Virus record (IMG/VR): IMGVR_UViG_2617271113_000004 | Location: 32,001 to 96,000 of that record | Length of the DNA: 64,000 nucleotides | Source of the DNA: a virus | Taxonomy: Duplodnaviria > Caudoviricetes | Reading direction: 5' to 3' (one strand) | Shown here: piece after piece, positions 21,658 to 54,796 of the stretch | Layout of the letters: each line of letters starts with the position of its first letter | Position numbering within the stretch: position 1 is the stretch's first letter | The notes under the pieces: model-generated | Database searches by the model: none | What the model saw: only the letters and a program-made list of their open reading frames with translations | Told to the model about the DNA's origin: nothing | Program-made: the position numbers and the translations under genes

Positions 21658-21663
21658 ACATTA

Positions 21664-21698: not shown

Positions 21699-21902
21699 CT
21701 TTATAAATTATAAGGAATTATCTATTGCTGTTACAACATGTAGTAGGCTAGTTCACAACTGTTGCAACTTCATATTCTGTAAAATTTGCATCCCCAGTTT
21801 CTAATGGTTGTTTATAGCTATCATGTATTTTAGAACGATGTACACGATATCCTCCTAAGTTTTCTTTTAGTTTTGGAATCTGCACGATCATGAACATCAT
21901 TC

Positions 21903-21950
21903 AAAATAAAAGGGTTTCAATCTTCGTTTTTCGATGATTGAAACCCTTTA
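21903..21950 (-). terminator. Rho-independent terminator of the 160-aa gene
   Basis: aaagggtttcaatc...gattgaaaccctt long stem just past the stop codon, U-rich tail on the minus strand. Confidence 0.75.
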
Positions 21951-21961
21951 CTCGCATCAAT

Positions 21962-22444
21962 TTAAATTAGTAGCATTACTCCCGCTGCAATTGCGTCGCC
22001 AATTGGAACATAGTATGTTTTTGAAACACCCATATTGTCAAGTGACTGTTGAATAATTCCACTTAAACGTTTTTGTGAATAATCTTCTAAGTCACTAATT
22101 TTTTTCTGAGCATCGTCAATTCCATCAGCGATTTTATCACTGTTTTTAGAGAGATATCTTGCTTGGTCTGCATCAAGGAACTTTACGATTTTTGATAGTC
22201 CAGAACCACCATATCTAACTGCAAGTTCAGCAATTTGCATTGCACCTTTAATTATCCAACCAGTTTTACCAGCAGCTTCAACTTCTCCATCATCAACATT
22301 TGAAGGCTCATCCTGTATGTAATTATCAGATACAACCGGCTCCTTCATATTATTGGATTTTTCAGCAGCGAAACTTGCGCTTGGTACTAGAAAAGAAACC
22401 AGTAGCATAAGCGCCATGAAACTAATAAACGATTTCCTTAACAT
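21962..22444 (-). CDS. Secreted helical protein (Sec signal, acidic pro-region); bacteriocin-like candidate
   Basis: MLRKSFISFMALMLLVSFLVPSASFA signal peptide; strong GGGAGAGGG RBS; amphipathic mature part. Confidence 0.6.
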   Translation of the reverse strand: MLRKSFISFMALMLLVSFLVPSASFAAEKSNNMKEPVVSDNYIQDEPSNVDDGEVEAAGKTGWIIKGAMQIAELAVRYGGSGLSKIVKFLDADQARYLSKNSDKIADGIDDAQKKISDLEDYSQKRLSGIIQQSLDNMGVSKTYYVPIGDAIAAGVMLLI

Positions 22445-22545
22445 AATTCCCTCTCCCTTTTTTGGTAATTTTTTACTATAAGCAATTATAGAATACTAAA
22501 TGTCTAATACTTTGTAAATAGTTTCATAGTAAAATATTTACTTTT

Positions 22546-27794: not shown

Positions 27795-27817
27795 TGAAAG
27801 GCATTACAATTATTATA
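27795..27817 (-). promoter_or_regulatory. -10 box (TATAAT) with palindromic operator copy 3 downstream
   Basis: Plus strand TGAAAGGCATTACA at 27795-27808 and ATTATA at 27812-27817, upstream of the GGAGG RBS of the 651-aa gene. Confidence 0.6.
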
Positions 27818-29811: not shown

Positions 29812-30654
29812 TTATAGAATCTCGATTAACCGTGGTCGAATCCGTTCTTCTTCAGAAATCACATGATTAGTTAGAAGTGCTGGTGTATCATTCAAATAAA
29901 AGTACTTAACCTTAAAATCTACAATATTGTCGTCCAAATTCATTACTTTTTGAACAAAATCATTATAAATAAAGTCTTGATCTATTGAAAAGTTACCAAA
30001 ATAATTATTCAACTCACTCTTTACATTTAGGCGTATGCCTTCACTATCTCTTGTGCCTTCTTTCAATATAAGCTGTAGTTCTATCTCTAAATAGATTTCA
30101 TCAGGTAGGATTACATAAGGCTTCACTCCAAAGGCTTTTACTTGCTGCAAAACACTTTCCATGTTCTGTTTAACTGTTTCTGAGTCAAATCCATTTAAAG
30201 TAGTAAGAATAAAGCTAAATGTCCCTGTCCCATGTGTATATTCCTTCCCAAAAATAGACTGAACTCCTGGTATAGATAAACATGCGAGTCTTACAGCCTC
30301 CTCATTAGAAGAGACAGCTGCACTTACTTGTTTTGATAGCTCTATTCTATATGTGTCATCATCAATTAGCTTTTCTTCTTCGACACCTGTATCTTGATTT
30401 ATGATAATTTCTGTTCGCCTCGGATAATTAAACATCTCGCCCATTAACTCTAAATGCGTTCCAATAGCCCTGCTTAAATAACCATTGTTAAGCACTTCCT
30501 CAGCAAATTCATAAAGACTCTCAAATTCTCCACTCAATGATTCTGTTATAGATCGTGCAATACTTCCTGCATTAAAATTGGTAATAGGCGTATTTGTGAC
30601 AATAACATCCAGAGCATCTTTAATAATCTCTTCTTTACTTCTTTTAACTAGCAT
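29812..30654 (-). CDS. Baseplate J/gp47-like wedge protein (compact)
   Basis: TNFNAGSIARSITE, LSRAIGTHLELMG, DDDTYR, SIPGV, VKAFGVK motifs typical of baseplate J; canonical position. Confidence 0.8.
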   Translation of the reverse strand: MLVKRSKEEIIKDALDVIVTNTPITNFNAGSIARSITESLSGEFESLYEFAEEVLNNGYLSRAIGTHLELMGEMFNYPRRTEIIINQDTGVEEEKLIDDDTYRIELSKQVSAAVSSNEEAVRLACLSIPGVQSIFGKEYTHGTGTFSFILTTLNGFDSETVKQNMESVLQQVKAFGVKPYVILPDEIYLEIELQLILKEGTRDSEGIRLNVKSELNNYFGNFSIDQDFIYNDFVQKVMNLDDNIVDFKVKYFYLNDTPALLTNHVISEEERIRPRLIEIL

Positions 30655-30671
30655 GAAACACACCTCTCTTT

Positions 30672-31307
30672 CTAAATAGTTTGCGGTGATTTAACAATAA
30701 TAGGATCATCGGCATCACTATCTACAACTGTGTAAAAATCAATTTGATCAATACTTGTAGGAACAGCTTTCACAGTAATGTCCTCTCTCATGAAACGACC
30801 ATCATAAGTTAATGTCTCATGTATAGATTCTTCTCCACGTATTCCTGTTGCTTTTGTATTAGGCTCTCCTTCTAACAACTCCATATCTGCTCCTATATTC
30901 TCGTGAGATCGCCAATCCCCTTTTTGAGTTCTTATTCTATTCATTGCATCTTGTTCCGCAGATTCATAATTCGTTGTTAATCCCAAATCAACTCCACCCG
31001 CATTGTCAGGTTCTCCTAATATAAGATCTCCTTCAATAACGGCATATATCTGATATTCATATAGATTATCTACAGGAGGTTTGCTATCTTGGTAATGCAT
31101 TACATTTTGATCTAATGTAACAACTAACTCCCATCCTTCCACAGATACATCTTTACGATAAATTGCATATCCACCAATTTCATTTTGTAACTCCCATGTA
31201 AGGTAATATCCCGCATCGTTGGGGGTAATATCAATAAAGTCCATTTTTTCTTTTCCGTAAAAGGACATATCAATTTCTTTATATTTCCCCATATACCTAT
31301 TCACCAT
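30672..31307 (-). CDS. gp25/gpW-like baseplate protein with an N-terminal FN3-like domain
   Basis: EQDAMNRIRTQKGDWRSHENIGADME is gp25-like; LTW..GYAIYRK..YQD..YEYQIYAV is FN3-like. Confidence 0.65.
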   Translation of the reverse strand: MVNRYMGKYKEIDMSFYGKEKMDFIDITPNDAGYYLTWELQNEIGGYAIYRKDVSVEGWELVVTLDQNVMHYQDSKPPVDNLYEYQIYAVIEGDLILGEPDNAGGVDLGLTTNYESAEQDAMNRIRTQKGDWRSHENIGADMELLEGEPNTKATGIRGEESIHETLTYDGRFMREDITVKAVPTSIDQIDFYTVVDSDADDPIIVKSPQTI

Positions 31308-31647: not shown

Positions 31648-32064
31648 TTAACCCCCCGTCATAAAACTAAATACATTAGCTACCGCAAATTTGAAGGTAT
31701 TTGAAGCAACTTCCCATTGTGTCGGTTCTCGATAGAAACCAGTTATTACAGGTTGTGAGCTATCTCCATCTATAAATTGAACCCAAACCCGATCACCTTT
31801 AACTAAACCATTAGAGATAATTCCCTGCGAGTAAACCATACAAGGAACTCTTTTGAGTACTTGGTCTTTTTTCCCCATATTCACTTTTATATCTGCTGTA
31901 TGTCGTTCTGTATCTTTTACTGGATTAGTTAACCCGTGCTCATCACACGTACATTGTAGTGATTCAGGATGATACCTTAAAACATGACCGATGAGGCCAG
32001 AAGTCTTTCGTTCTAAAGAACGACCGGCCGCATCCTTTGCAATAGTTGTTTTTATTTCACTCAT
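31648..32064 (-). CDS. Baseplate spike N-terminal OB-fold protein (gpV/gp5-like)
   Basis: LVKGDRVWVQFIDGDSSQPVITG matches the gpV/gp5 OB-fold motif. Confidence 0.7.
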   Translation of the reverse strand: MSEIKTTIAKDAAGRSLERKTSGLIGHVLRYHPESLQCTCDEHGLTNPVKDTERHTADIKVNMGKKDQVLKRVPCMVYSQGIISNGLVKGDRVWVQFIDGDSSQPVITGFYREPTQWEVASNTFKFAVANVFSFMTGG

Positions 32065-32076
32065 AGTCAACCCCCT

Positions 32077-35000
32077 CTATGCTTTTTTAGGAAATGATAA
32101 ATGTAGATGGTTATGGTGGTTTCCTGGTTCATAAATGAATTGTATCTTAGGATACTTTTTCTTCATTTGCTGAATGATGAACCAGTCCCCGAAAATGATG
32201 CCATCAAATCCTGCTTTCACACAGCTTTCCACCAATTTAATTGCATTGGTTTTATCTTTACCTGAAGGAAATCCTAATTTACCTCCTGATAATCTTCTCA
32301 TTGTGTTTGGTGTATCAATATCGACTCCATATCCTGTTCCATGCCAGTTGGGATCATTAGCACGGTAAGCACTTGTTACTACAATCTTCTCCCCTGTTTT
32401 AGACTTATAATCTTTGGCAACAGCATTCAGTAAGTCGTAAGTTCCTTTTCTCATAAGACTAGTTCCACCAACAATTGTAATATTAAAGGATCTACCAGTT
32501 TGATTCTTAGACTCAACAAGCTTTGATCTAGCTTGACTTGAACTTAAATGGTATTTGTCTTTACCTTTTGAACCAGTTACATCTGGAGCATCATCAGTAC
32601 CCCCTTTTGGATACTCATAATAACGCATAATGTGTTCAACATACTTCTTATCTCCATATCGGTTCCAACCTAATTCTGCTGCTTTCTTATCAGAGAATTT
32701 ATTTGTTAATTCCTGTGTCCACTTACCGCCATTATTATTAACATAGTCGATGAACCCACCGCCAAAATTATATGATTGTAACGCTAAAGCTACATCCCCA
32801 TTTGCCTTATTCATCATTTGCCCAAAGTATTTTACCCCTTGTTGTAAGCTTCTTTCTAACCCTATAGAATTTCGAGGTAAGCCTAGACTCTCAGAAGCTT
32901 GAAATACATCAGGGTATCGATTATAATTCCCTCCAGTTTCTTGCATACATTTGGCTTTTAGTATTTCTGCGTACTCTGGTTTTCCTTGTTTCTTGGCTTC
33001 TGCCTCTATTTTTGGTCCTAACGTTTTAAAGTGGGAAGATAGATTAACAGCTTTTCCATTTAAAGGGATACTAGAGGAACCATCCCATTGTTCACTATCA
33101 GAATTATCTCTTGTAAATAAATCAAAGAGATTAGAGAGAATGCTATCTGCTTCTTTCAACTTTTGCTCCAAGTGACTATAATCTGGCCTGTTGTTTTCTG
33201 CCCGTCGATTTTCTAAGAACTCCGCTCTCCCACTTATTTCTTCTTTTGCTGCTTCTACATCACGTTTGTAATACTCTTCAATTTTGCCATTGTCTTCATA
33301 GGTGTTAGGTCTATCAAAGATACTTTTTATTAATTCATCTGTTGTAAAAGTTTTCTCTGAAGTTGTAGGAGATGTAGCAAAAGATTGAATTTGACCGGGT
33401 AATTCTCCATTGACTGTTCGATCTTCCACACCTATAAGTCCAAGCAAAAAGTCTGGGATACCGTCAAATACCTTGTTTGCTTCTTTGGGCTCCCCTACTA
33501 CTGATCCTTTGTTTCCATTTATACCAGCAGTAAAATTAACTCCTTCTTTCTTTAACGGAACAATTAGAACAGCTTGTCGGTTCATTAGAAACCTCTCAGT
33601 TAATTCCCCAACTGTGGAAGATATCACACCAACTGCTGCTGTTTCTATAGCAAATGTAATAATCCCCGCTGGCCCTAATAAAGCATGTTTTCCTTTCCAT
33701 AATCCTTTTGCTACACCAGCTAGTTGTTTTCCACCTTTTAGAAGTCCAGAAGTACCTTTTGCCCCCTTCAACATTGCAGAACTAGCTTTTCCTTTGATAT
33801 TAGCCATCTTTCTAGAATCAAAATCTCTCAATAGTTTAGATTGACTAAACAAATTTCCCCCTTTATTGAACACTTTCTCTATATCTTTCTCATTTAAACC
33901 ATCTAATGATTTGGTCAATGAATTGAATAATCCGTTAGCTTTCCAACGTTTTAAGTCAGCTTGAATGTCAGCTTTCGGTAAATTAGATACAGACTTTTTA
34001 ACAGTTTCGGTTGCTTTTCCAGCATTCTTCTTATAATAATCTTCCGCTTTACTTACACCTTTAAAGCTTCTGACCTTTTGTTGCATCTTCCCTGCCCGCT
34101 TGGCTGTACTTGACCATAATGCATTTAGAATAGGTAAAGACCCTGTATATCCTCTACTTGCAAGAATTGCTCTAATATGCATTCTAGCCATTGCATATGC
34201 TCCAATGGTTGTCGCCCGCATGAGTAAATCAAAAATCGATTTATCCGCATTGAAGCAGACTGCATCAGGTTTAATCATACTGATAAAACCTACATCATGG
34301 TTCATAATATGAATGGATTCTTTAACATCTGCAGGACCGCTCATATTTGAATAATAATCTTGTATAATCATTGTGTCGTAAGGTTTTACAGTAGGATCGC
34401 CCATCACCGTGAGATATCCATCGTACATATCTTTTACATAATCTCGTAGACCAGCTGCAGTAATTTTTAATGCAACACCTTCATCGAAGAACCATTTAGC
34501 TGGTTTATTTAACGCATCTCCTATAAAAGGTATCTTGTCTATTGCCCAAACACCTTTAGCATTTAAAGTCGTGTCTATATTTACTGTCTTCTGCTTTTCT
34601 GGCCATATGTCTGTATCTACATAAACAGGAGAAGTTGTGGAAATTTTACCTTCATTCATGTATGTTCCAACTGCTACAGTATACATATTTTCTTCAGTTG
34701 CTTTTATCTGATTGTGAATAATCGAAGTATAGCTGTCGTAAATATGCATCTGTTTAAAGGATTTTTTTAAGGTTCCTTTAATCGATTCACCTTCAAGATC
34801 TATATCATAATCATGACTTATAGGGAAATATGGCTTTCCAAGAAATATTGTATTTCTAAGGCCGAATGGGTGAACTGCAGTAATCATGTCTTGACCAACA
34901 GCTGCTGTAATATTAAGTACATCCCATACTGTTTTATCGAATAAGTTAATGTTTATATTTACTTCATCTGAATCACCCATACCAAGCCCATCTTGAATTT

Positions 35001-38000
35001 TTCTATACCATTTATCTTGCTCAGCATTTAATAATCCTGTTGTTTGATAAACATTCATATTAATTTCTGCTGTTTCCCTGCCTTCCATAACCCCTAGGCT
35101 AAATAAGTCTTGAAAATCTTGAACCCCTTGAGGTAAACCAGTTTCACCAAAATGCATAATTCCTAATGCATGATCTTGATATTCTCTATTGCTCAAAGAT
35201 GCGGATATATTTGACCAGAAACCTTTCGAATCTGTAAGTAACTCATCTACAATTTCAGTAGGTTCTTTTTTAGAACTCAAAAATCCACTTGTATCATCTT
35301 CAGGATCTATATCCATCATTGCATTTAATTTATTCGTTAATTCGATTCCGTCATCTTGAGCAATCATTGTCATAGTTGCACCGTTATTTTGAAGACTTGT
35401 AATGGTTCCGTTCATGATTGTAGGTAAATTTGCAGCGTTTGAACCATACCCCATGCGCATATGAACTCTTACACCAGTTCTTAAATAAATACTTTTATAA
35501 TAATTTGGATCTCTGTGTCTACTGCGTTCCGTTTCCTTAGCAACTGCCCCAGGCATCATAGCTGCCAAGAATAAGTCTCCAAAGCTAGAGTGTGTAATGT
35601 CTTGCGCTTTCTCGTGATCGTCTAATGATCCAAACACGTTGCTTAATTCACACACTAAGGTGCTAGAAGCTTGTTTTCTACTGTTATTGTAGGTAATATC
35701 AGTAACCGCTCTATAATGAAAATACTGATCTGACATTTTAGCAGTACCTATAAACTGACCTTCATCTATAAATGTCATGAAAAATGTTGGGAAAGCACGT
35801 ACTAATCTACCCCTTCGATCATGCTTTAACATATCCGTCATCATACTTGCTTCAGATATTTTACTTCCGTTATCCGCATAGGATTCCTCATCAGATCTAG
35901 ATAACTGATCAATAACTGTTTTATCATAATCATCTACGATTACAGCTTTATAATCTTTAATAGGTAATTTATCATACTTTGATTGAATAGTTTCGTAATC
36001 CCATGATTCCGTGTTATCCAAAGTGTTTATCATGTTATTAATTTGATTTACTAGACGCTTATTTGGAGCTTTATTATTTTTTAACAAAGCAGTTAGTTCC
36101 CGTTTAAAGTCTAGGTAAAGTAACACCGTACAAATAAACTGTACTTTCTCTGCGTCTTCAGCTGATGAAGGAGACAAATCAAATAGATCGTATACACGGT
36201 CAATGTTGTATTCCCCATCGTTCATAATCGCCTCTGATGATCCCCAGTAGTAAGAGAAATAACGCATCCCTAAATCTACGTTGTACTCTATACTGTTGCG
36301 TATGTGTTTCTTTTGATCTGACTCCCCATATTTACCCCTAACTCTCATTACTCCTATATACTTAGGGTTGGATTGATATTTATAATTCAGGTTTTCATCT
36401 TGCATAATAACCTGTCCTTTACTTCCTACTTTGACACCATCTAGTTCTTGATTTAAACCGGCATTATAAAAATGTCTCATATTTGGATCAAACGATTGAA
36501 CAAATGCTGTAGGATACTTTCCCTTTATGCCATACACAGAAGCAGACTTTCTGATCAACGCTTCCATGTTATCCTTGGTTAAATTATCGTTATCAACTTC
36601 TTTAGAAATATCTGCACTTGGTGATATATTAGGCATCTTTTCTTCAGAAAGACTCTTTGTTTCATCCCTCTTTTGAGTAGCAACTTCGTCTAAGGAATAA
36701 CCACTATCATCTAAAGTAGCAGTTCCTCCAGTAGCATCGTATAAATCAATCTGACCTGCGCCTTCTAAAACAGATCTATTTAATATCTGTGCAAAGTCTC
36801 TTTCGGTATCATAGTTTATAAAGAAGTCAGGGTCTACAAAGAGTCCATCATTTGTGTTAATTACACTAAATCCAGCTTGCTGCACTTCATCATATGTGGG
36901 TAATTCTAAATCTGGATATAATTCCGCTGCTTTGAAAGTTTCAAGAACCCATGCATTATAAATTGCTTGATCATTAGCATCATTACTCACCCCTACTGCA
37001 TTTTTAATCTTCTTAAAACCACTAGTAATATTTTTGATAAATGGTGGAATGCCATTCACTAAATCAATATCCCAGTTTAAATCTAATGTCATTGCATTTA
37101 TTTCATGCATTTTCTTTTCTGCTCGATTGTATGCCATTAATGTAAGATTAACATCATATACACCAGGCATCCCATCAACAGTATCTACAGTCATATCATC
37201 AATAACTACATTTGTGACTCCATATAACTTTGCTATTTGATGATTGAATTGCAGAAACCCATTAGCAACTTCTTTATGATATTCACGAGTTAGATACGAT
37301 GTCCGACGAACTAAGTTCTCTAAACTAGCTATAGCTTCCATATCTGTGCACTGGAAGCGTGCAACCATTACAGTATCTTGTGAACCTAAGTATTGATGAG
37401 TTGGGGACTGATGCATCTGTAATTGATTTGATGTAATCGAATTTTCGAAACTAATGCTGAAGTCTTCCAGATGCATGTTACCTAAAGACCATGATTCATA
37501 ATGTAAATCATACTCATACATTGCTTTGCTATATAAATCATCATACGCCTCATTGAACTCTTCTTCCTTAGCATTATCACCAAATTTGACTCCGCCATCT
37601 TTACTTACTTTTACTTTCAGCCAATCATCAAAACTTAAGTCATTCTTATCGCTAGTCCATTCTTTTATAAGTTCTTTCTTTTGTTTATTCCACTCTCGAA
37701 TTGCCTGAAGATCGTCTTCTGCTGCAATTTTAAATATATAATCATTTGTTAATTCATCTGTTAACGGTTCAAAATAAGTTAAAACACGTTCTGCATCTGC
37801 ACCTTCACCTTTAGTCATTGATTTATATAAGGCAGACGCAACAGGGTCTTTAACTGTTGTTTTATTTAAATGCCTTTCATAATACCACCTGAACATTGGC
37901 CAATGAAACATTTCATCAAAACTTCTTTCACTCGTTCCATATATATAAGTAGCAGGTTCAAAAGCATAACATTGTATAATAGCTTGTAATGTATTAGGAA

Positions 38001-38370
38001 AACCTGGTGTTGTTTGAACAGTTACATTTTGAATTGTTATAGCTTCTATTTGATGAGCTTCGTTTAAATACGTGTTCTCAATTGGCAAGAATGGACACTT
38101 CTTACTTTGAGCTAAAATCGGTCTCAATTCAAAATTGATGGAATCTTCATTGGGAAAGAAAAGAGTTAGTGTAATTATTCGATCAAAGTATCCAGACTCC
38201 TTAGGAAGGCTATTTCTACCTCTCATCACAGATACTTTCTGATGTTTCATTTGTCTGTGTACGCTTATACTGGTTGGAGGTGTTAAAAACTGCGTATCTC
38301 CAATTCGCATAAAATGATCACCGAGATGCCCATAACGGACGTCCCGATCATCAAATGCGGTTATTGCCAT
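32077..38370 (-). CDS. Baseplate hub / tail-associated lysin with lysozyme-like and M15-type peptidase domains
   Basis: MQETGG..DVFQASES..QGVKYF..ALQSYNFGGGF..YGDKKYV (CwlT-type lysozyme-like); VTSAYR..HGTGYGVDI..HLHLS (M15 Zn peptidase); hub-like RTGVRVHMRMGYGSN..NGTIT. Confidence 0.8.
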   Translation of the reverse strand: MAITAFDDRDVRYGHLGDHFMRIGDTQFLTPPTSISVHRQMKHQKVSVMRGRNSLPKESGYFDRIITLTLFFPNEDSINFELRPILAQSKKCPFLPIENTYLNEAHQIEAITIQNVTVQTTPGFPNTLQAIIQCYAFEPATYIYGTSERSFDEMFHWPMFRWYYERHLNKTTVKDPVASALYKSMTKGEGADAERVLTYFEPLTDELTNDYIFKIAAEDDLQAIREWNKQKKELIKEWTSDKNDLSFDDWLKVKVSKDGGVKFGDNAKEEEFNEAYDDLYSKAMYEYDLHYESWSLGNMHLEDFSISFENSITSNQLQMHQSPTHQYLGSQDTVMVARFQCTDMEAIASLENLVRRTSYLTREYHKEVANGFLQFNHQIAKLYGVTNVVIDDMTVDTVDGMPGVYDVNLTLMAYNRAEKKMHEINAMTLDLNWDIDLVNGIPPFIKNITSGFKKIKNAVGVSNDANDQAIYNAWVLETFKAAELYPDLELPTYDEVQQAGFSVINTNDGLFVDPDFFINYDTERDFAQILNRSVLEGAGQIDLYDATGGTATLDDSGYSLDEVATQKRDETKSLSEEKMPNISPSADISKEVDNDNLTKDNMEALIRKSASVYGIKGKYPTAFVQSFDPNMRHFYNAGLNQELDGVKVGSKGQVIMQDENLNYKYQSNPKYIGVMRVRGKYGESDQKKHIRNSIEYNVDLGMRYFSYYWGSSEAIMNDGEYNIDRVYDLFDLSPSSAEDAEKVQFICTVLLYLDFKRELTALLKNNKAPNKRLVNQINNMINTLDNTESWDYETIQSKYDKLPIKDYKAVIVDDYDKTVIDQLSRSDEESYADNGSKISEASMMTDMLKHDRRGRLVRAFPTFFMTFIDEGQFIGTAKMSDQYFHYRAVTDITYNNSRKQASSTLVCELSNVFGSLDDHEKAQDITHSSFGDLFLAAMMPGAVAKETERSRHRDPNYYKSIYLRTGVRVHMRMGYGSNAANLPTIMNGTITSLQNNGATMTMIAQDDGIELTNKLNAMMDIDPEDDTSGFLSSKKEPTEIVDELLTDSKGFWSNISASLSNREYQDHALGIMHFGETGLPQGVQDFQDLFSLGVMEGRETAEINMNVYQTTGLLNAEQDKWYRKIQDGLGMGDSDEVNININLFDKTVWDVLNITAAVGQDMITAVHPFGLRNTIFLGKPYFPISHDYDIDLEGESIKGTLKKSFKQMHIYDSYTSIIHNQIKATEENMYTVAVGTYMNEGKISTTSPVYVDTDIWPEKQKTVNIDTTLNAKGVWAIDKIPFIGDALNKPAKWFFDEGVALKITAAGLRDYVKDMYDGYLTVMGDPTVKPYDTMIIQDYYSNMSGPADVKESIHIMNHDVGFISMIKPDAVCFNADKSIFDLLMRATTIGAYAMARMHIRAILASRGYTGSLPILNALWSSTAKRAGKMQQKVRSFKGVSKAEDYYKKNAGKATETVKKSVSNLPKADIQADLKRWKANGLFNSLTKSLDGLNEKDIEKVFNKGGNLFSQSKLLRDFDSRKMANIKGKASSAMLKGAKGTSGLLKGGKQLAGVAKGLWKGKHALLGPAGIITFAIETAAVGVISSTVGELTERFLMNRQAVLIVPLKKEGVNFTAGINGNKGSVVGEPKEANKVFDGIPDFLLGLIGVEDRTVNGELPGQIQSFATSPTTSEKTFTTDELIKSIFDRPNTYEDNGKIEEYYKRDVEAAKEEISGRAEFLENRRAENNRPDYSHLEQKLKEADSILSNLFDLFTRDNSDSEQWDGSSSIPLNGKAVNLSSHFKTLGPKIEAEAKKQGKPEYAEILKAKCMQETGGNYNRYPDVFQASESLGLPRNSIGLERSLQQGVKYFGQMMNKANGDVALALQSYNFGGGFIDYVNNNGGKWTQELTNKFSDKKAAELGWNRYGDKKYVEHIMRYYEYPKGGTDDAPDVTGSKGKDKYHLSSSQARSKLVESKNQTGRSFNITIVGGTSLMRKGTYDLLNAVAKDYKSKTGEKIVVTSAYRANDPNWHGTGYGVDIDTPNTMRRLSGGKLGFPSGKDKTNAIKLVESCVKAGFDGIIFGDWFIIQQMKKKYPKIQFIYEPGNHHNHLHLSFPKKA

Positions 38371-38382
38371 AAACATAACCTC

Positions 38383-41300
38383 CTATATACTTTCTTCTAC
38401 TTTATCTCGGTACCAAATTCTATTAAGTTGGTTTGTATTATCTGAGTAATTTATAGATATACGAGACTGCGATGGGCTCATATTAGAGTTTGTAATACCT
38501 TCATTTACAAGATGGGAAAGCTGATCTTGAGTAACAGAATTTCCTTTTGCTTGAATTTGTATGTCAGCATTTTGCGTCCCTTGAAAGGCATTACTTTCCA
38601 TATTTAATGCTGGCTGTGGTTGATTTATTTCATAATGGCCATCAGTTTCAGTCGGATCATTTATCGGTTCACTGTGTCTAAGAATATTGTATCCTCCTAG
38701 TGCTCCAAGTGCAAGACCTGATCCAATAACTCCCCACCTTAATTTCTTATTTTCACTCATTGCTTCAAAGAATTCTTGAACTTTCCTCCCAATACTTTCA
38801 GATACATTCCCAGTTAGATCGTTAGCATATTCTCCTGTTGCACCCGCTAAAGTCGTAGAACGTGGTTCTCTTCTTTTTGCTTCCATTGATTCGTAAGGAT
38901 TTACTCTTGAATGGACATTCCCTTCCAAATCTATATATTCTTTTGAAGCATCTACGCCTAACATCTGATGGATCATATTTAAATACGTATTCCCCATTGT
39001 ACGCTGCTCATTTGGTGCAGAACCATTAATAATATCTGTAATGTTTTTCAGGCCTATTTCTGGATCTAAACCACTACTAGTTCCAAATTTATATGATTTA
39101 TTATACAATCCATTCTCCATATTGCCTTTAACTTTATCTATTGCAGAGAATGCTTTTTCCATCATTTCTGTATCAAAATCGTCAGCAAAATATCTTTGCT
39201 GGATTTCCCTTGTCTTGGACCAATTGCCTCGATAAATAGAATTAACCAATTCGATGGCAGGTGCCCTTCCTTCTTCTACAGTTAAACCGTGTTTAGATGA
39301 TATCGGTTTTTGCTCTAAATCTTGACCAAAATCCAAGACAGCTCGTTGTTCTGATGATCCATGATCAAGATATTCAAAGGCCATTTGTCGTAAAGTAAGA
39401 TTTAAATTAGAAGCCTGACCAATTACTCGTTTACCGATCTTCGATGCAAGTTCTTCCTGAGTATTAGGTTGAAAAGGAGCAAAGCGATCTTGCCCTTTCA
39501 ATATATAATTAGGATCATAACTCCTAGCTGATCTAGAATCTTTATTTATCTGCTTTTCATAAGCTTTTTGTCTTCTTGCTTCTTGCTCATTGTATCTGGA
39601 TTCCCATTCTTTTTGAACCTCTTTGTCCTTCATAACTACAATATTATCATAGTCACCATCTGAATCAGCTTTCATTAAATCAGACATCCATGAAGTTGTT
39701 CGGAATTCTCCTGATTTAACATCATCACTCATTCTTAATTTTGCTATCTGCATGGCATTGCTGTGGAATGTTGGATAACGTGTGTTCATTACGAATAAGT
39801 CACCATCAATCTCCCCGGAAGCACGTTTAGCCAGATCCTCATAAACACCCATTGCTTTTGCATCGTCGGGAGATATAAATGTAAACTCCCCATCTAAATC
39901 CATCGAAACTTTAGGATCCATCAATTTAAAAAGTCCATTTCCAGAAGTATTCATCCCAGCACGTAATACTTCTTTTCCTGTTTGTCCTTTAGAAGAAGTA
40001 ACATCTTTTGTAGCTTGTCTAAAATAATCATCTACCGATGCTTGAAGGCTATCCATAGCTGTGTTTCTTGCTTCTATACTTCCAGCCCGCTGTACATCGT
40101 CTGCTCGCTTATAAATATCCCCAATCTTCTTCTGTAAATCACGTAAGAAGACTTTTCCATTCGTTTCTTCTCTATTTGTAAAAGGTATAAATATATTATC
40201 AATAGCTACTCGTTCACTTGTATTTCCATTCAAATTCAAGGCTACTTTTCTACTATTCCCATTTGGAGCTTCTACACTTGGCAACTTCAACCAATACCCA
40301 TGTGCATTATCTCCACCTGTTAATGCATGTATATAATCTTTGTCAAACACCGTTTTCTTGTAGGTGTTCATATCAGCATCAATACTAGGTAAAGAACGAA
40401 AGTTTTCAACTTCTAACTCGGGTGCATTGTTAAGTAATTGGTTCTGATTGTCCACCGCCCCAGTTATTGAAGCAATGATATTTTTAGTTTCTTGTAGTCT
40501 AGTTTTATTTGAAGCTTGTGACATCATCGTTTCATACACTTTATTATACGTATTATCTAATTTAAGGTCTTTTAGTACTCCCATTTCACGATGACCCCAA
40601 TTTACTCCACCATGTTCGAAACCAATGTCTGTTCTAGCATATCTTTTTATCACATTGCCATTTTTATCATGCTCTAACCGTAATACTTTTCGGCCCTGCT
40701 CATCTGTCATCGTACTATAATTACTTACTTTACTTGCACGTGCTTCTAATATTGCTGTGTCAAATTCCAATTCCGTTTTATCATTAATTCCTAATGAGTT
40801 GAAGATTCGATTGAAACGTTGAGCAGGTATCGGTTTATTTCCTTCTTGGATAAACATTTGGGTTTCATCGTCCCATTTTAAGTTAACTTTGGAAGCCATT
40901 CGAATAGTTCTATCAAATTGTTTTTGTAGTTCCATTCTTTCCAATGCTCGACTGCTTGCCTTATCATTAGGGTGTGTTTCTGTATTGGCTTTAATAAGCT
41001 CGCTACTTATTTCTTGAGCGTGGTTAGCTAATAACTTAGCTTTACCAGATAGATACATACCAAAGTCTCTGTGTTTTTGTATATTAGCATTTAAAACCAT
41101 ACTTACAGAATCATCTCCAGTAATGGCTGACATCAAGTCCCTGCTAATTGAAACATCAGTTGCTTTTTCACCCTCTACGATATATTTAAATACATCCTCT
41201 TCCCAAGACACACCGATCCTTCCATTCTGCTGTATGACAGTAGCATCGTGTTTACCGTTGTACGTTATGGGTCTTTCATTTCCTTCTACTATTTCAGTTC

Positions 41301-48100: not shown

Positions 48101-50997
48101 TTAGGAGCAAATTCGATAATACGATCTCCTCGATAAGCTGTTCGAGAACCAATTGCCCACCATCGACCTTTACGGATTTCTTCTGTACCGTGAAGAAGAT
48201 CATCATAGGTTTCTTCTACGGTCATAGTGTCTTCTTCGCTTAATGGTGCAGCACCAGTCAATCCATTTAACAGATGGCCAGGTCCAACTTCCCCTATTCC
48301 TGGTATATGAATTTCCGGCATAGCTTCAAAATGCTCTATTCCTGGCTTTAACATTCTTTCTCTACGCAACTCATCAGTGGATCCAAAAGTCTCTCGTAAT
48401 TCAGCATCTTCGATTCGTTGATTAGCTTTATAATTTTCCCAACGTTCTTCGATACCAGCCCCAGTGTGTTTATCTAATAAATAATCTGTGTACTGATACC
48501 CTTCCGCTGCTCCAACAATTGGAAGCCCTCTTTTCAGCAACAGAGAACTCCAGATTTGTAACGGGCTTCCCATAGAAGCATCTGACAAACCTAAACCTAA
48601 ACTACCTAAAGCTTCTTGAATACGATATACAGGATAATACGACCCAAATATGGATAGAGTAGTTACATCTTCTGGATTTCTTCTTCCTGTTCGAAAGCTA
48701 CTTTGTTTTAATAAGTCAGCAATTCCTTCACCGCTACCTAGGTTTTTAAATATATTTGCTTTGTTTACTGCAATATATTCATTTGCAATTTGATTTGTAT
48801 GTTGAGCATTTGTATTCTTATGAAGAAGTGGATTTATTTTCTTCGCCATTTGACTTAAACTACTTTGAAAGCTTTTACTTGCATCGTCATTTTCAAGCAA
48901 AAGTCCATTAACATCCTCAAAGATTCGTTCATAATTCCCATTAACATGTCTACCAGCTTGCTCAAACATTTGCTGGTTAATTAGCCATTCGGCTTCTTGT
49001 AGATCCTTTTTTAAAATTGCTCCAGATTTTTGACTATCTTTTAACTTTTTCCTTAATTGATGTTGAACTTCTTTTGACCTCAATAGTCCATTTGGTTTCA
49101 CTTCGGTTATTTGCCTGATTAATTCTTTACCAACTTCTTGGTTTATTTCATCCATTCCTGTTTTAATTTGTATCGTACCACCCATAATCATACTTGTTTG
49201 ACCATGAGGAATGGTTTTGCCAAGTACTTCATCTGGGTTTCTTTCAAAGTTCCGATACAATTGATTAAATGCAAAACTTGTATCAATATTTTCGTCTTGG
49301 CCTAAATGTTTAAATAGACGAATCATGTCATCGTCTCTGGAGAAATTAATATTCATTTCATTAATTTTATTAAGCAGAGAAGTAGGTAGATCACTTTTAA
49401 TCTCATTAAAAACTCTTGATGATAAGCCTTTTGAATTTTGATCAAGAAAACGTTGCATGTCATGATATTGACTTGGCGAATCAATACCATGTTGCAGTGC
49501 TTTGTTTATTTTTCTTCGATCCCAATCCTTATCCCAAAATTTTGAGAATACACTAAAACCTTCAACAGCTATTGGATCTTTTTCCTGACCACCGATATCT
49601 AATAATTTAGCTAACTTGCTATTGGATGCATCCATACCCATAATAGATCTAGATCCATCTGTCATGGTTCCACTCATTTGTCTGGAAATTGTTGATATTG
49701 TTCCAAATCGGGCTGATGTCAAATACATATCTCTTTCAGGATTTAGAACTTCAAGTGGTTTATTACTCGTAATAGCCTGGTGATCAAATAAACGCATAAA
49801 TTTTCCGTTTGAAAAAATAACATCTTCAGTTAGTGGCTCATTTGCTTTCAAACCTAGATGACCATTTAGCATAGGTTGAACGGTACCACGTTTAAAAATC
49901 CTAAAGCTAGATTGCTCTCTGGCTGATCGAATATTTATGATATCCCTTAAGTGCATTAATCCACCTGGAAGAGTGTGAGACCACCATTCCATTGCGTCCC
50001 GTTTCACTTGATCTAACGGCTTATAATCTGTTAATCCAGTTGCTTTTCCATCTTTCAAATTGACATATAAATTATTATCGAATATAGCGTCCTTGAAATC
50101 CTTATTGTATCCTAATACACTATCAATTTGTGATTTTACATCCTCTGGCAAGATTGCTTTTTGACTCTTGTGTAGATCTAATACATCCTGGATGGTTGCC
50201 TGTTTAAGGTTAGATCCAATAATCGTTTGTTTTATTGTACCATTAGCTTTAGTAATACTTTCTATGTCTTTGGAAGTAGCAGCTCTTAACTTTTCTTGTA
50301 TTCCCTCTATCCATTCTTTTCCCTGTTGAGACGTTTTAGAGAAATCTTTACTTTTGTTTTTTAACCGAATATCGTTAACTAAATCAATAACACCTTTATC
50401 TTGAATTCCTTCTTGGTTTAATAAATGTCGGATATCAGAGTTACTTCCTTTTCGGAGAACACCATTATATCCACGGCCAATGCCTCTTTCAATTTGATCT
50501 GCTGTATCTTTCGTTATATTATTTGATTTTCGTACCTCTTGCATTACCGATTGAAGTCGAAGTCCTTCACTCATATATTCAGGTACATCATTTTCAATCA
50601 ATTGTTGTCGTTGTCTAAGATAACGAGTCATATCAAATTCTCTACTAGACAGTAGGCTCTTCTCTTGCTTGTCTTTGAGAGACAAAAGATCCTCTTTTTT
50701 GTTTTGATATGTATCTCTTGACTTCTTTAAACGATCTAAGCTAAAGTTTTTCGCAAACGACCCTTCTTCATTCATCGTCTCTCTAAAGGCTTGTCGGGAA
50801 GCGGATACTTCTCTATTTAAGAATCTAGAAAGTTGGCGCATTGCTCCTGATCTATGCCCAATCGCTAATGCACCAACTGCTGCAACAGCACCTAAACCAG
50901 CCTTTTGATATAAAGGCATCTCTTCATTTTCAGAAGTCAAATAACGGCGGTATTCATGATTAGAATTTTGGTAATCTTCTACTCTTAACTCTTCCAT
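45178..50997 (-). CDS. Tape-measure/ejection-like giant protein with hydrophobic helices and a degenerate thermonuclease-like domain
   Basis: 1939 aa, first gene after the tail chaperones; Gly/Ala-rich hydrophobic segments; VTVTRFLDDYTF..IRLAGVDS..DTYGTMRAVV..LNKQIIDAG. Confidence 0.6.
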   Translation of the reverse strand: MEELRVEDYQNSNHEYRRYLTSENEEMPLYQKAGLGAVAAVGALAIGHRSGAMRQLSRFLNREVSASRQAFRETMNEEGSFAKNFSLDRLKKSRDTYQNKKEDLLSLKDKQEKSLLSSREFDMTRYLRQRQQLIENDVPEYMSEGLRLQSVMQEVRKSNNITKDTADQIERGIGRGYNGVLRKGSNSDIRHLLNQEGIQDKGVIDLVNDIRLKNKSKDFSKTSQQGKEWIEGIQEKLRAATSKDIESITKANGTIKQTIIGSNLKQATIQDVLDLHKSQKAILPEDVKSQIDSVLGYNKDFKDAIFDNNLYVNLKDGKATGLTDYKPLDQVKRDAMEWWSHTLPGGLMHLRDIINIRSAREQSSFRIFKRGTVQPMLNGHLGLKANEPLTEDVIFSNGKFMRLFDHQAITSNKPLEVLNPERDMYLTSARFGTISTISRQMSGTMTDGSRSIMGMDASNSKLAKLLDIGGQEKDPIAVEGFSVFSKFWDKDWDRRKINKALQHGIDSPSQYHDMQRFLDQNSKGLSSRVFNEIKSDLPTSLLNKINEMNINFSRDDDMIRLFKHLGQDENIDTSFAFNQLYRNFERNPDEVLGKTIPHGQTSMIMGGTIQIKTGMDEINQEVGKELIRQITEVKPNGLLRSKEVQHQLRKKLKDSQKSGAILKKDLQEAEWLINQQMFEQAGRHVNGNYERIFEDVNGLLLENDDASKSFQSSLSQMAKKINPLLHKNTNAQHTNQIANEYIAVNKANIFKNLGSGEGIADLLKQSSFRTGRRNPEDVTTLSIFGSYYPVYRIQEALGSLGLGLSDASMGSPLQIWSSLLLKRGLPIVGAAEGYQYTDYLLDKHTGAGIEERWENYKANQRIEDAELRETFGSTDELRRERMLKPGIEHFEAMPEIHIPGIGEVGPGHLLNGLTGAAPLSEEDTMTVEETYDDLLHGTEEIRKGRWWAIGSRTAYRGDRIIEFAPNSYRKAHSDWEYSEVTSSAEEKYAHSLFPTFENPLGALSFLIGTRDPYWWEKKHYYDRPYMLTGDLFNSNTPFLGDIGNMTIGQLIKPTREMHKEYWGDPEVVQEEFDLLGERPVEPVTTRISPSGRIEYNVDASPEDYGARSSYYIARRRYDEDSDPTGDMIIGDPTTGKTIYLPRRLNDKYVDLNSAFIAAEQNDQRSVETEPRGMFAPSYEYQQQVDKNKINELQDPRSFEWRGQELASNWLEPHGVYNWIFMDEILGRDPYVGKTVVAKSDEAYNASDAFWESELGSLGGSLSEIGRRFIRRDSGQLDKYNPIPNTMPDWLPGGNYFINFQTGDPYSLIPHGEYRLPGEAYEKLNRLHPDETGTYGAFDKFKILADVAPWSDEYKFWKDYVTEYVEDDQLRKQAAQIKRQVSRRKQKYEFQEYLYKDAELEKEKVTVTRFLDDYTFLTEEYGDQPIRLAGVDSRANAEGVLEEYIDVGDRITIGIDADENKRISSDTYGTMRAVVFQGINSLNKQIIDAGQMKELESDFSSPGVWARFSPEEIAKGSRWESIAHFDSALNTKFLQVRTALEEYERDQIYGQDWSTWENFGITDYGIPAIHKMAGKDNPLLAGLSGAMFGGVVGRIFLGGGNRTKAGAIIGGITGLTANAFAKLYQYRNDERWIPERRRTEQDINEYFDILKYMKYAGLYEKAKEELDHLGYDADEFLRNVEEKEQRTKEARRELEEQKKQLYIEQPRNWEEKKKKINIELKKIEEQWDEIQLPTPVAQALYYKEQRDTTLYGIDPHEDRMKVMQSLPYKDKWFFNEFVDANAADRKKILELVPENQRRIYKTIWGMEAEEKKPLSYYANKYAIPDADWEGWSPEYSLDDIKVKTVMEEGIDLTDFNYWNDDIEAAALTPDLPNDYNEPEFLGYQSVEKNLRDVLQGQGLHNVQVIVKPSNGNETHTRINYQQDRSKEIEDEFRYNMDAYL

Positions 50998-51008: not shown

Positions 51009-51767
51009 CTATTCAAAATCCCCTTTAAGTTCTTCTTCTGCTTTAAACCAAGAAAGTTCAGGAATTATATCTAATTCCTCATTAGGATTATAATTTATAT
51101 ATCTTCCGTTCTTTGCTTCATTTTCTTCTAGCATAGCTATCACTTCAGCTTCACTTAACTCTCCATTTTCTCCCTTCTCCTTTGAAAGTGATTGGCTAGT
51201 ATCAGTTTCATTAGTGAAGTTATATTGATAATTCTGCTGAGCAGGATTTTGTTCTTCTTGAGTAAACTGAAGTGGTACTCCTTTTAACTCTTTTAAAATG
51301 TACTCTGCTCTTGAAAGATAATACATACTCTTATTAATTGGCCAATTCGATATTTCTTCAATAGACAAAGAAGGGAAGGCTTCATGAATAATACAATCTA
51401 CCTGAAAATCAAAATGAAGCATCTCTTCACGATAGTGTTGCAGAAGCACTTCTGCCTGTCCTTCCATTAAATTAGATGTCTGGATAATATTGTTTGATAA
51501 GGATTCAGCTACTCCGGCAGGTCCTGAAGAAAAGTCATATTTAGGATGTAATACACAAAGATTACACACATGCTCTTGAAGTTTAGTAATATCGTCTTGA
51601 AAATTTATTAGAGCTTGATTATACTCTTGACGACCTATTTCTCTATATATAAAATTTAAATCCAATTCTTTTTCTTCATCACCGATATTAATCTCATAAA
51701 TATTAGCGTATTTTTCTTTCCACTCATGTACTAGACTTTCTTTTACTTGCAATCTCATTATTATCAT
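51009..51767 (-). CDS. Tail assembly chaperone-like protein 2 (paralog with C-terminal extension)
   Basis: EWKEKYANIY, YREIGRQEY, GPAGV match the 154-aa neighbour; position between tube and tape-measure slot. Confidence 0.55.
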   Translation of the reverse strand: MIIMRLQVKESLVHEWKEKYANIYEINIGDEEKELDLNFIYREIGRQEYNQALINFQDDITKLQEHVCNLCVLHPKYDFSSGPAGVAESLSNNIIQTSNLMEGQAEVLLQHYREEMLHFDFQVDCIIHEAFPSLSIEEISNWPINKSMYYLSRAEYILKELKGVPLQFTQEEQNPAQQNYQYNFTNETDTSQSLSKEKGENGELSEAEVIAMLEENEAKNGRYINYNPNEELDIIPELSWFKAEEELKGDFE

Positions 51768-51775: not shown

Positions 51776-52240
51776 TTACAATTGTATTGGAGCACTTTGT
51801 GCAAAGAAGCCAGATTTACTCATAATCATTTCATTCAAAACTGTAGGTAAACCAGCGTTTCCTTTTGTTAGCTTGGAAACGGAAAAGTTTCTAGGAAATA
51901 TAACACATTTGTCAGTTATAATCTCTTCTTTATCAAAGGCAGTATAATCTTGGTTTAATGCTACTTCTCGATATTCAGCTCTATTTAATTGTCTAAACAT
52001 ATATATGTCAGAATCAAAAGGAACAAAATAAATATTTCCATACTTATCCTTCCACTCTTCAACTTCTTGTCTGGTAGGCCCTTTTGGAACTACTTCTTGC
52101 GCCCACTCTTCTTTTGAAAATTCTTCACCACGCTCGGTGATAATTACATCTTCTTTCTTCTTTTGTACTGCTTCCTCTAAATTTTCTTGTTCTTCTTTAT
52201 CTTCTGAGAACATCTCTAGTTGTTTATCCTGATTTTCCAT
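51776..52240 (-). CDS. Tail assembly chaperone-like protein 1
   Basis: EWKDKYGNIY, FRQLNRAEY, GNAGL; small and acidic; canonical position. Confidence 0.6.
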   Translation of the reverse strand: MENQDKQLEMFSEDKEEQENLEEAVQKKKEDVIITERGEEFSKEEWAQEVVPKGPTRQEVEEWKDKYGNIYFVPFDSDIYMFRQLNRAEYREVALNQDYTAFDKEEIITDKCVIFPRNFSVSKLTKGNAGLPTVLNEMIMSKSGFFAQSAPIQL

Positions 52241-52264: not shown

Positions 52265-52291
52265 TGTAATGCATTACATAATACTATTATA
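52265..52291 (-). promoter_or_regulatory. Perfect palindrome TGTAATGCATTACA (operator copy 4) downstream of a TATAAT box
   Basis: Palindrome at 52265-52278; ATTATA at 52286-52291; GAGGAG RBS of the chaperone gene downstream. Confidence 0.65.
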
Positions 52292-54771: not shown

Positions 54772-54796
54772 TAGGGGAGGGATATCCCTCCTCCTA
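54772..54796 (-). other. GC-rich stem-loop between sheath and tube genes (mRNA stabiliser or partial terminator)
   Basis: taggggaggga-ta-tccctcctccta imperfect inverted repeat. Confidence 0.5.

Follow-up and report, generated by a model that had tools for sequence, protein, structure and literature searches.

A predicted exonuclease-RNA polymerase in the tape-measure slot of a 0305phi8-36-like jumbo phage is a candidate for delivery through the tail

We analyzed a 64,000-nucleotide window of viral DNA (Caudoviricetes), which corresponds to bases 32001-96000 of the single 191,052-bp record IMGVR_UViG_2617271113_000004, and concentrated on three consecutive giant genes of its tail module whose products are called here P0001, P0002, and P0003. 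The middle gene encodes a protein with predicted exonuclease and two-barrel RNA polymerase domains, and it lies where Bacillus phage 0305phi8-36 has its presumed tape measure gene. Because the gene in this tape-measure slot encodes an exonuclease-RNA polymerase, the phage probably injects its own transcription enzyme through the tail. We estimate the probability that P0002 is a tail-delivered virion RNA polymerase, carried within a conserved block equivalent to genes gp145-gp146-gp147 of 0305phi8-36, at roughly 0.6. The three proteins and the parts of P0002 that matter most for this proposal are as follows, in window coordinates.

45178..50997, minus strand: P0001, 1939 amino acids (aa), ATG start; homologue of virion structural protein gp145
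38383..45162, minus strand: P0002, 2259 aa, GTG start; exonuclease, RNA polymerase core, and C-terminal module
44053..44880, minus strand: exonuclease domain of P0002, about residues 95-370, from DEDDh motifs and a profile match
39073..41442, minus strand: two-barrel RNA polymerase catalytic core of P0002, residues 1241-2030, from an AF2 model, Foldseek, and VIA-align
41164..41187, minus strand: codons K1326 to K1333, including two invariant lysines (39 of 39 sequences) in beta-strands of the N-terminal barrel
39652..39666, minus strand: codons of the metal-binding triad D1833-S-D1835-G-D1837, invariant in 39 of 39 sequences
38386..38865, minus strand: C-terminal module of P0002, residues 2100-2259, with a helix, a Pro-rich linker, and a conserved terminal domain
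32077..38376, minus strand: P0003, 2099 aa, ATG start; homologue of hub protein gp147

Searches with the single P0002 sequence against Pfam, PHROGs, NCBIfam, and PDB sequences returned only a sub-threshold match to RNase_H_2 (17.8 bits versus a cut-off of 22), and Pfam matches across nine family members were all weak, falling under or close to the cut-offs (RNase_H_2 in 7 of 9, with a best E=9e-5; RNase_T and DNA_pol_B_exo2 in 2 of 9 each; RNA_pol_Rpb1_2 in 1 of 9). Relatives were nevertheless recovered. A word-indexed search found 8 that are full length and 34-56% identical. When residues 1000-2140 were compared exhaustively with 1.84 billion representatives by phmmer, 41 proteins matched at E<=0.001; 32 of these have lengths of 1873-2729 aa, and the other 9 are 115-623-aa fragments. 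The resulting family alignment holds 39 sequences with 19-62% identity to the query and a mean column identity of 21%. Residues K1326, K1333, T1335, K1363, E1526, T1604, R1795, P1797, D1833, D1835, D1837, G1915, and I1954 are invariant in all 39. Retention of the catalytic residues despite so low a column identity indicates selection on catalysis.

Several of these residues fall in recognizable polymerase signatures. An N-x-R-Y-P-T-F-H motif (R1795-Y-P1797) precedes the D1833-S-D1835-G-D1837 triad, and the pair N-x-R-Y-P-T-F-H ... A-D-S-D-G-D resembles the R-x-P ... N-A-D-F-D-G-D arrangement of cellular RNA polymerase largest subunits. When a profile of the 39 sequences was compared with the PDB, the triad aligned with NADFDGD in the largest subunit of RNA polymerase V (E=6.1e-4); the same segment also aligned with Rpb1, Rpo1N, the ASFV RPB1 homologue, and PHIKZ055 at E values of 0.07-0.6. 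The reference residues reported for Rpb1 are the triad D479/D481/D483 together with R446/P448, and those reported for the second barrel, in Rpb2, are lysines K979/K987 (PMC2919709); two-barrel signature residues are also described in PMC7824862. The invariant K1326 and K1333 sit in strands 97-100 and 103-110 of the structural model described below and are candidate counterparts of Rpb2 K979/K987.

Residues 1230-2030 were modeled with AF2 from the 39-sequence alignment, which yielded a confident structure (pLDDT 88.6, pTM 0.84). Our conclusions on the core rest on this model. A first model of residues 1000-2140 built from 9 sequences was poor (pLDDT 56.2, pTM 0.32) and was set aside; it gave no Foldseek match at E<=0.001, although 48 of 50 among the matches listed were RNA polymerases and 2 were TnpB or Cas, and its best VIA-align score was Z 7.8. 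With the 39-sequence model, a Foldseek search of the PDB produced at least 500 matches at E<=1e-3, and every one of the 49 rows among the matches listed is an RNA polymerase entry (E 4.8e-7 to 5.6e-6), including the phiKZ non-virion RNA polymerase.

A VIA-align comparison with 48,161 representative chains returned 20 chains at Z of at least 8, and ranks 1-15 are all RNA polymerases; a second pass agreed with the first. The top match is QDE-1 (Z 13.7, 292 residues aligned, root mean square deviation 4.0), which covers model residues 12-798 and hence both barrels. It is followed by Pol I (11.2), Pol II (10.7), archaeal A' (10.6), the vaccinia enzyme (10.5), and RDR2 (10.0). The phage enzymes matched include P74 gp62 (Z 10.6, residues 9-801), which has no fuller name in its entry title and which we take to be the P74-26 counterpart of gp64 from Thermus phage P23-45, and the non-virion polymerases of AR9 (9.4) and phiKZ (9.3). 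The tail-associated polymerase gp96 of P23-45 (8h2m_A) ranks 21st with Z 8.0, below QDE-1 and the polymerases of cells, poxviruses, and jumbo phages. Isolated double-psi beta-barrel proteins superpose on model residues 510-615 (Z 7.9), and model residues 325-501 superpose on an RNA polymerase clamp (3qqc_A, Z 7.3). On the basis of these fold matches and the invariant triad and R-x-P motif, we assign a two-barrel RNA polymerase core to P0002. The core is established at the level of fold and motif, and its activity is predicted.

The N-terminal exonuclease is likewise identified from motifs and a profile match. DEDDh exonucleases are defined by Exo I (D-x-E), Exo II (N-x(2-3)-[FY]-D), and Exo III (H-x4-D), and P0002 carries these in order as D107-x-E109, N281..F285-D286, and H360-x4-D365. 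The motif residues show no change in 9 of 9 sequences, and their conservation in the 39-sequence alignment is at least 90%. The 39-sequence profile matched the exonuclease domain of family-B DNA polymerases in the PDB (E=1.3e-5, profile positions 260-331); a 9-sequence profile gave weak matches only to such domains (E of at least 0.12). The name "exonuclease-RNAP" given to this protein in an earlier note, which was prepared from the window sequence without database searches, proved apt for both parts. The full domain order is DEDDh exonuclease, a stretch of ~870 aa without assignment, two-barrel RNA polymerase core, and C-terminal helix plus terminal domain. Residues 400-1229 gave no usable match in the ESM Atlas.

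Comparison of the core model with the viral protein models in BFVD returned an unnamed entry, A0A7R7G2L5_2, as the best fold match (E=1.3e-22). Other matches were a protein called "Minor tail protein" from uncultured Siphoviridae sp. ctnpt50 (E=1.2e-15, TMq 0.47), a protein of Microcystis phage MaMV-DC (E=2.7e-8), and two proteins of Acinetobacter phage vB_AbaM_ME3 (E=5.8e-10 and 8.5e-5). In vB_AbaM_ME3, positions 17725-22536 encode ME3_36 (1603 aa, "hypothetical"), which lies between a gp145-like protein and the hub, carries R-E-P ... G-G-D-H-D-Q-D at residue 1217, and has a hydrophobic helix at residues 1480-1500. The tail-slot polymerase arrangement may therefore extend to Gram-negative jumbo phages, and the ctnpt50, ME3, and Microcystis phage matches together hint, more speculatively, that it may be widespread and ancient among long-tailed phages.

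The C-terminal module connects P0002 to a known virion protein. Its helix, LRWGVIGSGLALGALGGYNIL, spans P0002 residues 2141-2161 (38680-38742 in the window) and is Gly-rich. The module is shared with 0305phi8-36 gp146 (hidden Markov model [HMM] domain E=1.2e-9), with CDS31 of Moorella phage MTATph1 (1.1e-12), and with phages Edson and KLEB27-3, and an alignment of this region from six phages displays the same succession of a Gly-rich hydrophobic helix, a Pro-rich linker, and a conserved terminal domain. We propose that it serves as a tail-loading or anchoring module. The gp146 protein (2537 aa) is encoded between ORF145 and ORF147 and is labeled "hypothetical tape measure protein" in the 0305phi8-36 record (GenBank EF583821), where both gp145 and gp146 carry the remark "identified as virion protein by mass spectrometry". 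The tape measure assignment was derived from a correlation with tail length, and in that 2007 study an alignment of orf146 with the BtI1 and BwK1 proteins in the equivalent position was feasible for the final 60 residues only (PMC2147016). The P0002-family HMM matches gp146 significantly only over its last ~150 residues; the Exo I region is matched marginally (domain E=0.0033), and a polymerase region was not detected.

The earlier note had proposed a synteny survey of the trio, and this survey found the complete P0001-P0002-P0003 order in 6 of 9 other distinct loci: the Oceanobacillus profundus contig, three IMG/VR loci (L014, L015, and L016), KLEB27-3, and Edson. The count leaves out L013, which is the IMG/VR copy of the Oceanobacillus profundus contig, and the IMG/VR locus L017 ends within the block. 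In the remaining 2 of 9 loci, those of 0305phi8-36 and MTATph1, the flanking genes are kept and the middle gene is different or interrupted. The MTATph1 slot gene (positions 12513-19869 of that phage) is split by a transposase gene; the first piece (1309 aa) has an exonuclease-like stretch, and the last (313 aa) has the C-terminal module. KLEB27-3 (gp034) and Edson encode full-length members in the same slot with the signature N-R-Y-P-T ... K-A-D-x-D-G-D. KLEB27-3 gp034 is annotated as "structural protein" and WH1 gp095 as "virion structural protein"; the latter has a tblastn match to P0002 residues 80-719 only and holds the corresponding position relative to the P0001 and P0003 homologues of its phage.

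Across these loci, P0002 diverges faster than its neighbors. Its nearest relative in the genome collection, encoded on a 194,705-bp contig of Oceanobacillus profundus DSM 18246, is 56% identical, versus 69% and 64% for the flanking proteins, and the next relatives are 30-35% identical versus 42-45%. Judged from these comparisons, the three-gene gp145-gp146-gp147 block is ancestral to the 0305phi8-36 lineage. The earlier note had seen three giant genes where one tape measure gene is expected. The slot is indeed there, but the expectation of a single gene calls for some adjustment: in this lineage the block of three is the ancestral state, and any of its three products may be the length ruler.

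By its gene content and structural genes, the element is placed in the lineage of Bacillus phage 0305phi8-36 (PMC2147016). From its sequence, we conclude that it is a 0305phi8-36-like jumbo contractile-tailed phage or prophage of a Bacillales-type host. IMG/VR classes the 191,052-bp record as a provirus that is 97% complete. Its GC content is 34%, and it is laid out as a long minus-strand structural arm and a plus-strand arm; all sizeable open reading frames (ORFs) of the window are on the minus strand. Encoded in the genome are a DNA polymerase III alpha subunit, a SNF2-type helicase, and a PF05183 (RdRP/YonO-like) polymerase. A megablast search with the 18.9-kb trio region against 50,697 phage records gave no match.

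The trio is embedded in a run of tail genes. On its 5' side are a 947-aa sheath gene, three tube-like paralogues, and two chaperone ORFs, and on its 3' side are a weak gpV-like spike candidate and then Baseplate_J and wedge genes. The immediate neighbors are as follows.

51776..52240, minus strand: tail assembly chaperone, 154 aa, 0305phi8-36 gp143-like (tblastn to the gp143 region, E=2.6e-20)
51009..51767, minus strand: tail assembly chaperone, 252 aa, 0305phi8-36 gp144-like (tblastn to the gp144 region, E=1.5e-18)
31648..32070, minus strand: 140-aa ORF, weak candidate for a gpV/gp5-like spike OB-fold (phrog_430 E=4e-4; PF04717 E=0.008, below cut-off)
29812-30663, minus strand: ORF with a Baseplate_J match
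52265..52278, no strand assigned: palindrome TGTAATGCATTACA, exact copy, 25 nt upstream of the gene for the 154-aa chaperone

The C-terminal portion of the 154-aa ORF is paralogous to the N-terminus of the 252-aa ORF (blastp E=3e-10), and the same relationship has been published for gp143 and gp144 of 0305phi8-36 (PMC2147016), which are labeled "hypothetical tail chaperonins" in the record of that phage. The spacers are 11 bp between the 252-aa chaperone ORF and P0001, 15 bp between P0001 and P0002, 6 bp between P0002 and P0003, and 6 bp between P0003 and the next gene. These data agree with much of what the earlier note had described: three minus-strand giant ORFs of 1939, 2259, and 2099 aa at the coordinates given above, which follow the chaperones and are separated by less than 20 bp (6-15 bp as measured). 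Its statement that no promoter or terminator is evident also stood. Sigma-70-like sites (69 versus 79.0 +/- 8.5 in shuffles) and terminator-like sites (10 versus 9.3 +/- 3.2) show no excess, and a scan of the short trio spacers for promoter-like and terminator-like sites found none. As had been described, then, the P0002 gene is part of a tail-gene run that is headed by the chaperones, and it has no detectable promoter or terminator of its own.

A candidate control site of a different type precedes this run. The palindrome TGTAATGCATTACA occurs as 7 exact copies in the 191-kb genome, and 6 of the 7 lie in spacers 18-42 nt upstream of start codons, in both arms. At up to 2 mismatches there are 27 sites genome-wide. 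In the window there are 5 such sites (52265-52278, 31091-31104, 27795-27808, 21636-21649, and 8154-8167) versus 0.60 expected, a number that 0 of 100 shuffles reached. The palindrome may be a phage-specific promoter element or a regulator's operator that heads the chaperone-trio run. Because a copy precedes the first chaperone gene, the trio is probably cotranscribed with the chaperones from a shared phage-specific control site, and the position of this copy favors coregulation of the trio with tail genes over early expression from a separate promoter. Between the sheath gene and the first of the tube-like genes, the spacer contains a GC-rich hairpin and then a T-rich tail (54776-54791, minus strand), which may be an attenuating terminator.

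Both neighbors of P0002 resemble virion components. Hydrophobic segments were located with 19-residue Kyte-Doolittle windows at a threshold of 1.3, and P0001 has two, as the mention of hydrophobic helices in the earlier note had led us to expect: residues 29-47 (1.31; 50857-50913 in the window) and 1578-1596 (1.68; 46210-46266). The well-conserved part of P0001 is roughly residues 760-1560, and this conservation pattern is unlike that of fast-evolving tape measures. P0001 may be an ejected or channel protein, or it may be a length ruler. Searches of Pfam, PHROGs, NCBIfam, and the PDB with the single sequence and a 9-sequence profile gave no match, and the ESM Atlas gave none that was usable. 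In KLEB27-3 (12620-19773), the P0001 homologue is present in two pieces, gp031 (1340 aa) and gp033 (677 aa), with the 211-aa gp032 between them.

P0003 matches ORF147 of 0305phi8-36, the "baseplate hub protein", by tblastn (E=3e-55) and matches phrog_20474 over residues 12-2024. A lysozyme-like domain is present at residues 1787-1920 (32617-33018 in the window; PF13702 E=8.5e-32, PDB 4fdy E=2.7e-23), and the description of this protein as a "hub-lysin" was accurate on both counts. P0003 also has a hydrophobic segment at residues 1567-1585 (1.71; 33622-33678). Its conserved C-terminal pattern H-x6-D...H-x-H presumably recalls LAS-type peptidases, and no model matched it. Pfam and PDB searches found no direct match to T4 gp27 or P2 gpD, the gp27-like nature of gp147 being a published assignment (PMC2147016). 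Some members of the P0003 family have an N-terminal thermonuclease-like domain (PDB profile E=5e-4) that P0003 lacks; such a domain has been published for the hub homologue of BtI1 (PMC2147016).

The genome encodes a second polymerase elsewhere. This YonO/RdRP-like enzyme (1168 aa) is located at C1:119870-123376 of the 191-kb record and matches PF05183 with E=1.2e-10 to 1.7e-8. It was the only match in a six-frame genome search with PF05183, in which P0002 gave no match at E<=0.01. The gene is near the start of the plus-strand arm amid long spacers and small ORFs, a setting that resembles an early region. The YonO-like family and the P0002 family co-occur in 5 of 5 IMG/VR records tested. A specific kinship between P0002 and the YonO-like polymerase of this genome was considered and dropped, because only the metal-binding segment aligns.

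We infer from these observations how P0002 might be packaged, ejected, and docked to the membrane, how it might use templates or promoters, and what its exonuclease might do. The earlier note had suggested late expression, packaging in the tail lumen or head, ejection with a channel-forming partner, and action from the membrane; the data support this reading in part, through the domain identities, the gene setting, and, indirectly, the link to virion proteins. P0002 would be a late product, synthesized along with P0001, the hub-lysin, and the tail chaperones, and it would be loaded into the tail (tube lumen or hub) via its C-terminal module. After sheath contraction and digestion of the wall by the lysozyme-like and peptidase-like domains of the hub, it would be expelled ahead of the DNA, and Gly-rich helices of the three proteins could help form or dock to a membrane passage. 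The polymerase would then transcribe the first-entering genes, plausibly including the gene for the YonO/RdRP-like polymerase, which would subsequently take over as in Thermus phage P23-45. A role for the exonuclease in resecting the entering DNA end to expose template was also considered and dropped, since by our reasoning 3'-5' action leaves a strand that directs transcription outward rather than inward. We also put forward, quite tentatively, a more general version in which the tape-measure slot is a cargo-loading position. The ~150-aa module would load whatever is fused upstream of it, and in most members this cargo would be an injected exonuclease-RNA polymerase that enters ahead of the DNA and starts a host-independent two-polymerase cascade.

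Several observations weigh against tail delivery of an active polymerase. The chief one is that gp146, the relative verified by mass spectrometry, shares only its last ~150 aa with P0002 and lacks D-x-D-x-D. The structural labels of KLEB27-3 gp034 and WH1 gp095 come from annotation, and a literature search for papers on KLEB27-3, WH1, Edson, and MTATph1 found none. The hydrophobic C-terminal helix that the earlier note had pointed out is present, but LRWGVIGSGLALGALGGYNIL is only moderately hydrophobic: no P0002 window reaches the 1.3 threshold, and a sum by hand gives ~1.2. By reasoning, the lumen of a tail tube should be too small for a folded ~800-aa polymerase core, and the core would therefore have to be stored unfolded or elsewhere. 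To our knowledge, no function has been established for a 3'-5' exonuclease within a virion polymerase. The proposed cascade has its own difficulties. The YonO-like family was searched for in KLEB27-3 and Edson and found in 0 of 2, so the two-polymerase cascade may not be general. An hhalign comparison of the P0002 family with the YonO-like polymerase of this genome gave only E=0.23 (single sequence) and E=0.17 (16-sequence profile). Finally, k-mer counts in 18 long spacers around the YonO-like polymerase gene yielded no second shared motif of an early-promoter type.

Three other explanations for P0002 were considered. One is that the protein is ejected but does not serve early expression. It might make RNA primers or DNA:RNA hybrids, act as a DNA-pulling motor, or attack host nucleic acids with its exonuclease while the polymerase is accessory. 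We regard this as unlikely, although some features speak for it: the closest structural neighbors, QDE-1 and RDR2, are RNA-silencing polymerases that copy single-stranded templates, and the polymerase is fused to an intact exonuclease. An injection role for a phage RNA polymerase was also raised by Hardies et al. (PMC2147016). However, P23-45 gp96, the only characterized tail-associated two-barrel polymerase, is reported to transcribe pre-early genes (PMC10770324). Also weighing against this explanation are the DNA polymerase III alpha gene of this genome and the primases reported for 0305phi8-36, the latter concerning that phage rather than this element.

It is less probable still that P0002 is an unpackaged, non-virion enzyme whose gene merely resides in a tail operon, such as a late-gene polymerase or a repair or replication factor. 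Globular enzymatic domains do make up at least ~1100 of its 2259 residues. Yet the slot between chaperones and hub is kept in every relative examined, the C-terminal module is shared with the mass spectrometry-verified virion protein gp146, homologues are annotated as structural, and a separate YonO-like polymerase is already available for intracellular transcription. We consider it highly improbable that P0002 is a structural tape measure or plug with dead polymerase-like and exonuclease-like relics, a view prompted by the tail-length assignment of its 0305phi8-36 counterpart (PMC2147016) and by gp146 itself, which lacks D-x-D-x-D and so implies that the slot can work without a polymerase, because all 39 aligned sequences keep the 7 diagnostic polymerase residues unchanged and conservation of the five exonuclease residues is at least 90%, against a mean column identity of 21% for the family. 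Delivery of P0002 through the tail as a virion RNA polymerase thus remains the explanation that we favor.

The tail-distal part of the window encodes additional large proteins. A giant 2058-aa protein with PA14 and Big_1 domains is encoded at 13928-20104, and a weak paralogue of it (1908 aa) at 8175-13901. A 1468-aa protein with a VWA domain (121-4527) and a 385-aa subtilase (22546-23703) are also present. The PA14/Big_1, VWA, subtilase, and 1908-aa tail-distal proteins are reminiscent of 0305phi8-36 fibre proteins.

Experimental knowledge of tail-delivered two-barrel RNA polymerases comes from a single lineage of Thermus siphoviruses. If our proposal is true, jumbo phages and prophages of Bacillales with contractile tails use the strategy as well, phages of Acinetobacter and cyanobacteria give hints of it, and it would represent a general solution for host-independent early transcription. 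The slot named "tape measure" in 2007 for the 0305phi8-36 lineage holds a predicted enzyme in the relatives examined, namely Edson, KLEB27-3, the IMG/VR loci, and the Oceanobacillus contig. A DEDDh exonuclease with intact motifs that is fused to an RNA polymerase is unusual and raises the question of proofreading or of template or transcript processing. Furthermore, the conserved C-terminal module offers a way into the question of how large folded proteins enter a phage tail and leave it again.

Among known systems, 0305phi8-36 has the same block in the same order, including the two split chaperones, and P0001 and P0003 correspond to its gp145 and gp147. In contrast, its gp146 has no detectable polymerase region and shares only the C-terminal ~150 aa with P0002, and the YonO-like orf99 is its only recognized polymerase. 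The available portion of a survey of jumbo phages mentions only the YonO-like enzyme for 0305phi8-36 (PMC7824862).

Other giant or single-chain polymerases share some features with P0002. The crassvirus phi14:2 encodes gp66, which like P0002 is a giant (~2200 aa) single-chain two-barrel polymerase; its gene adjoins those of two large virion proteins (g065 and g067), it is expressed with virion genes, and it is reported to be packaged and injected (bioRxiv 10.1101/2020.03.07.982082). However, phi14:2 is a podovirus-like phage of Bacteroidetes, gp66 is either head or tail cargo, and the accessible part of that report describes no exonuclease (bioRxiv 10.1101/2020.03.07.982082). We detected no sequence relation between gp66 and P0002, and the PDB entry for gp66 is absent among the fold matches listed. 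The YonO/RdRP (PF05183) enzymes and QDE-1 are single-chain two-barrel enzymes like P0002, but P0002 falls outside PF05183. The N4-like phages (Schitoviridae) are described as having a giant virion-delivered polymerase that is ejected with partner proteins. That polymerase has a T7-like single-subunit fold rather than two barrels and is packaged in the head.

Of the known systems, that of Thermus phage P23-45 comes closest. The N-terminal part of its tape measure, gp96, is described as a two-barrel polymerase responsible for transcription of pre-early genes, among them the one for a second, non-virion polymerase (PMC10770324). As in the element studied here, a two-barrel RNA polymerase is encoded where the tail module has its tape-measure position, the same module includes a hydrophobic "membrane" segment along with domains of cell-wall hydrolases, and a second, non-virion two-barrel polymerase (gp64) has its gene elsewhere in the genome. 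The differences are also considerable. P23-45 is a siphovirus of Thermus, whereas the present element is a contractile-tailed jumbo phage of Firmicutes. The gp96 polymerase forms the N-terminus of a 5002-aa tape measure, whereas that of P0002 is found in the C-terminal half of a separate protein of 2259 aa. P0002 is fused to a DEDDh exonuclease, and no exonuclease is mentioned anywhere in the available text on P23-45 (PMC10770324). Unlike in P23-45, the peptidase-like and lysozyme domains are located on the neighboring hub protein. The P0002 model includes a segment that superposes on the clamp, whereas gp96 is described as clamp-less. Moreover, gp96 is no closer to the P0002 model than cellular polymerases are, and no gp96 sequence match appears among the matches listed. 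A literature search for tape measures combined with two-barrel polymerases found only the P23-45 work, whose Supplementary Data 3 and 4 (23 polymerase families and two-polymerase genomes) may list the P0002 family. The principle of a tail-delivered two-barrel polymerase is therefore already known from P23-45, and what differs here is the type of phage, an architecture in which a separate protein carries an N-terminal exonuclease and a C-terminal polymerase, and a polymerase with no specific kinship to gp96.

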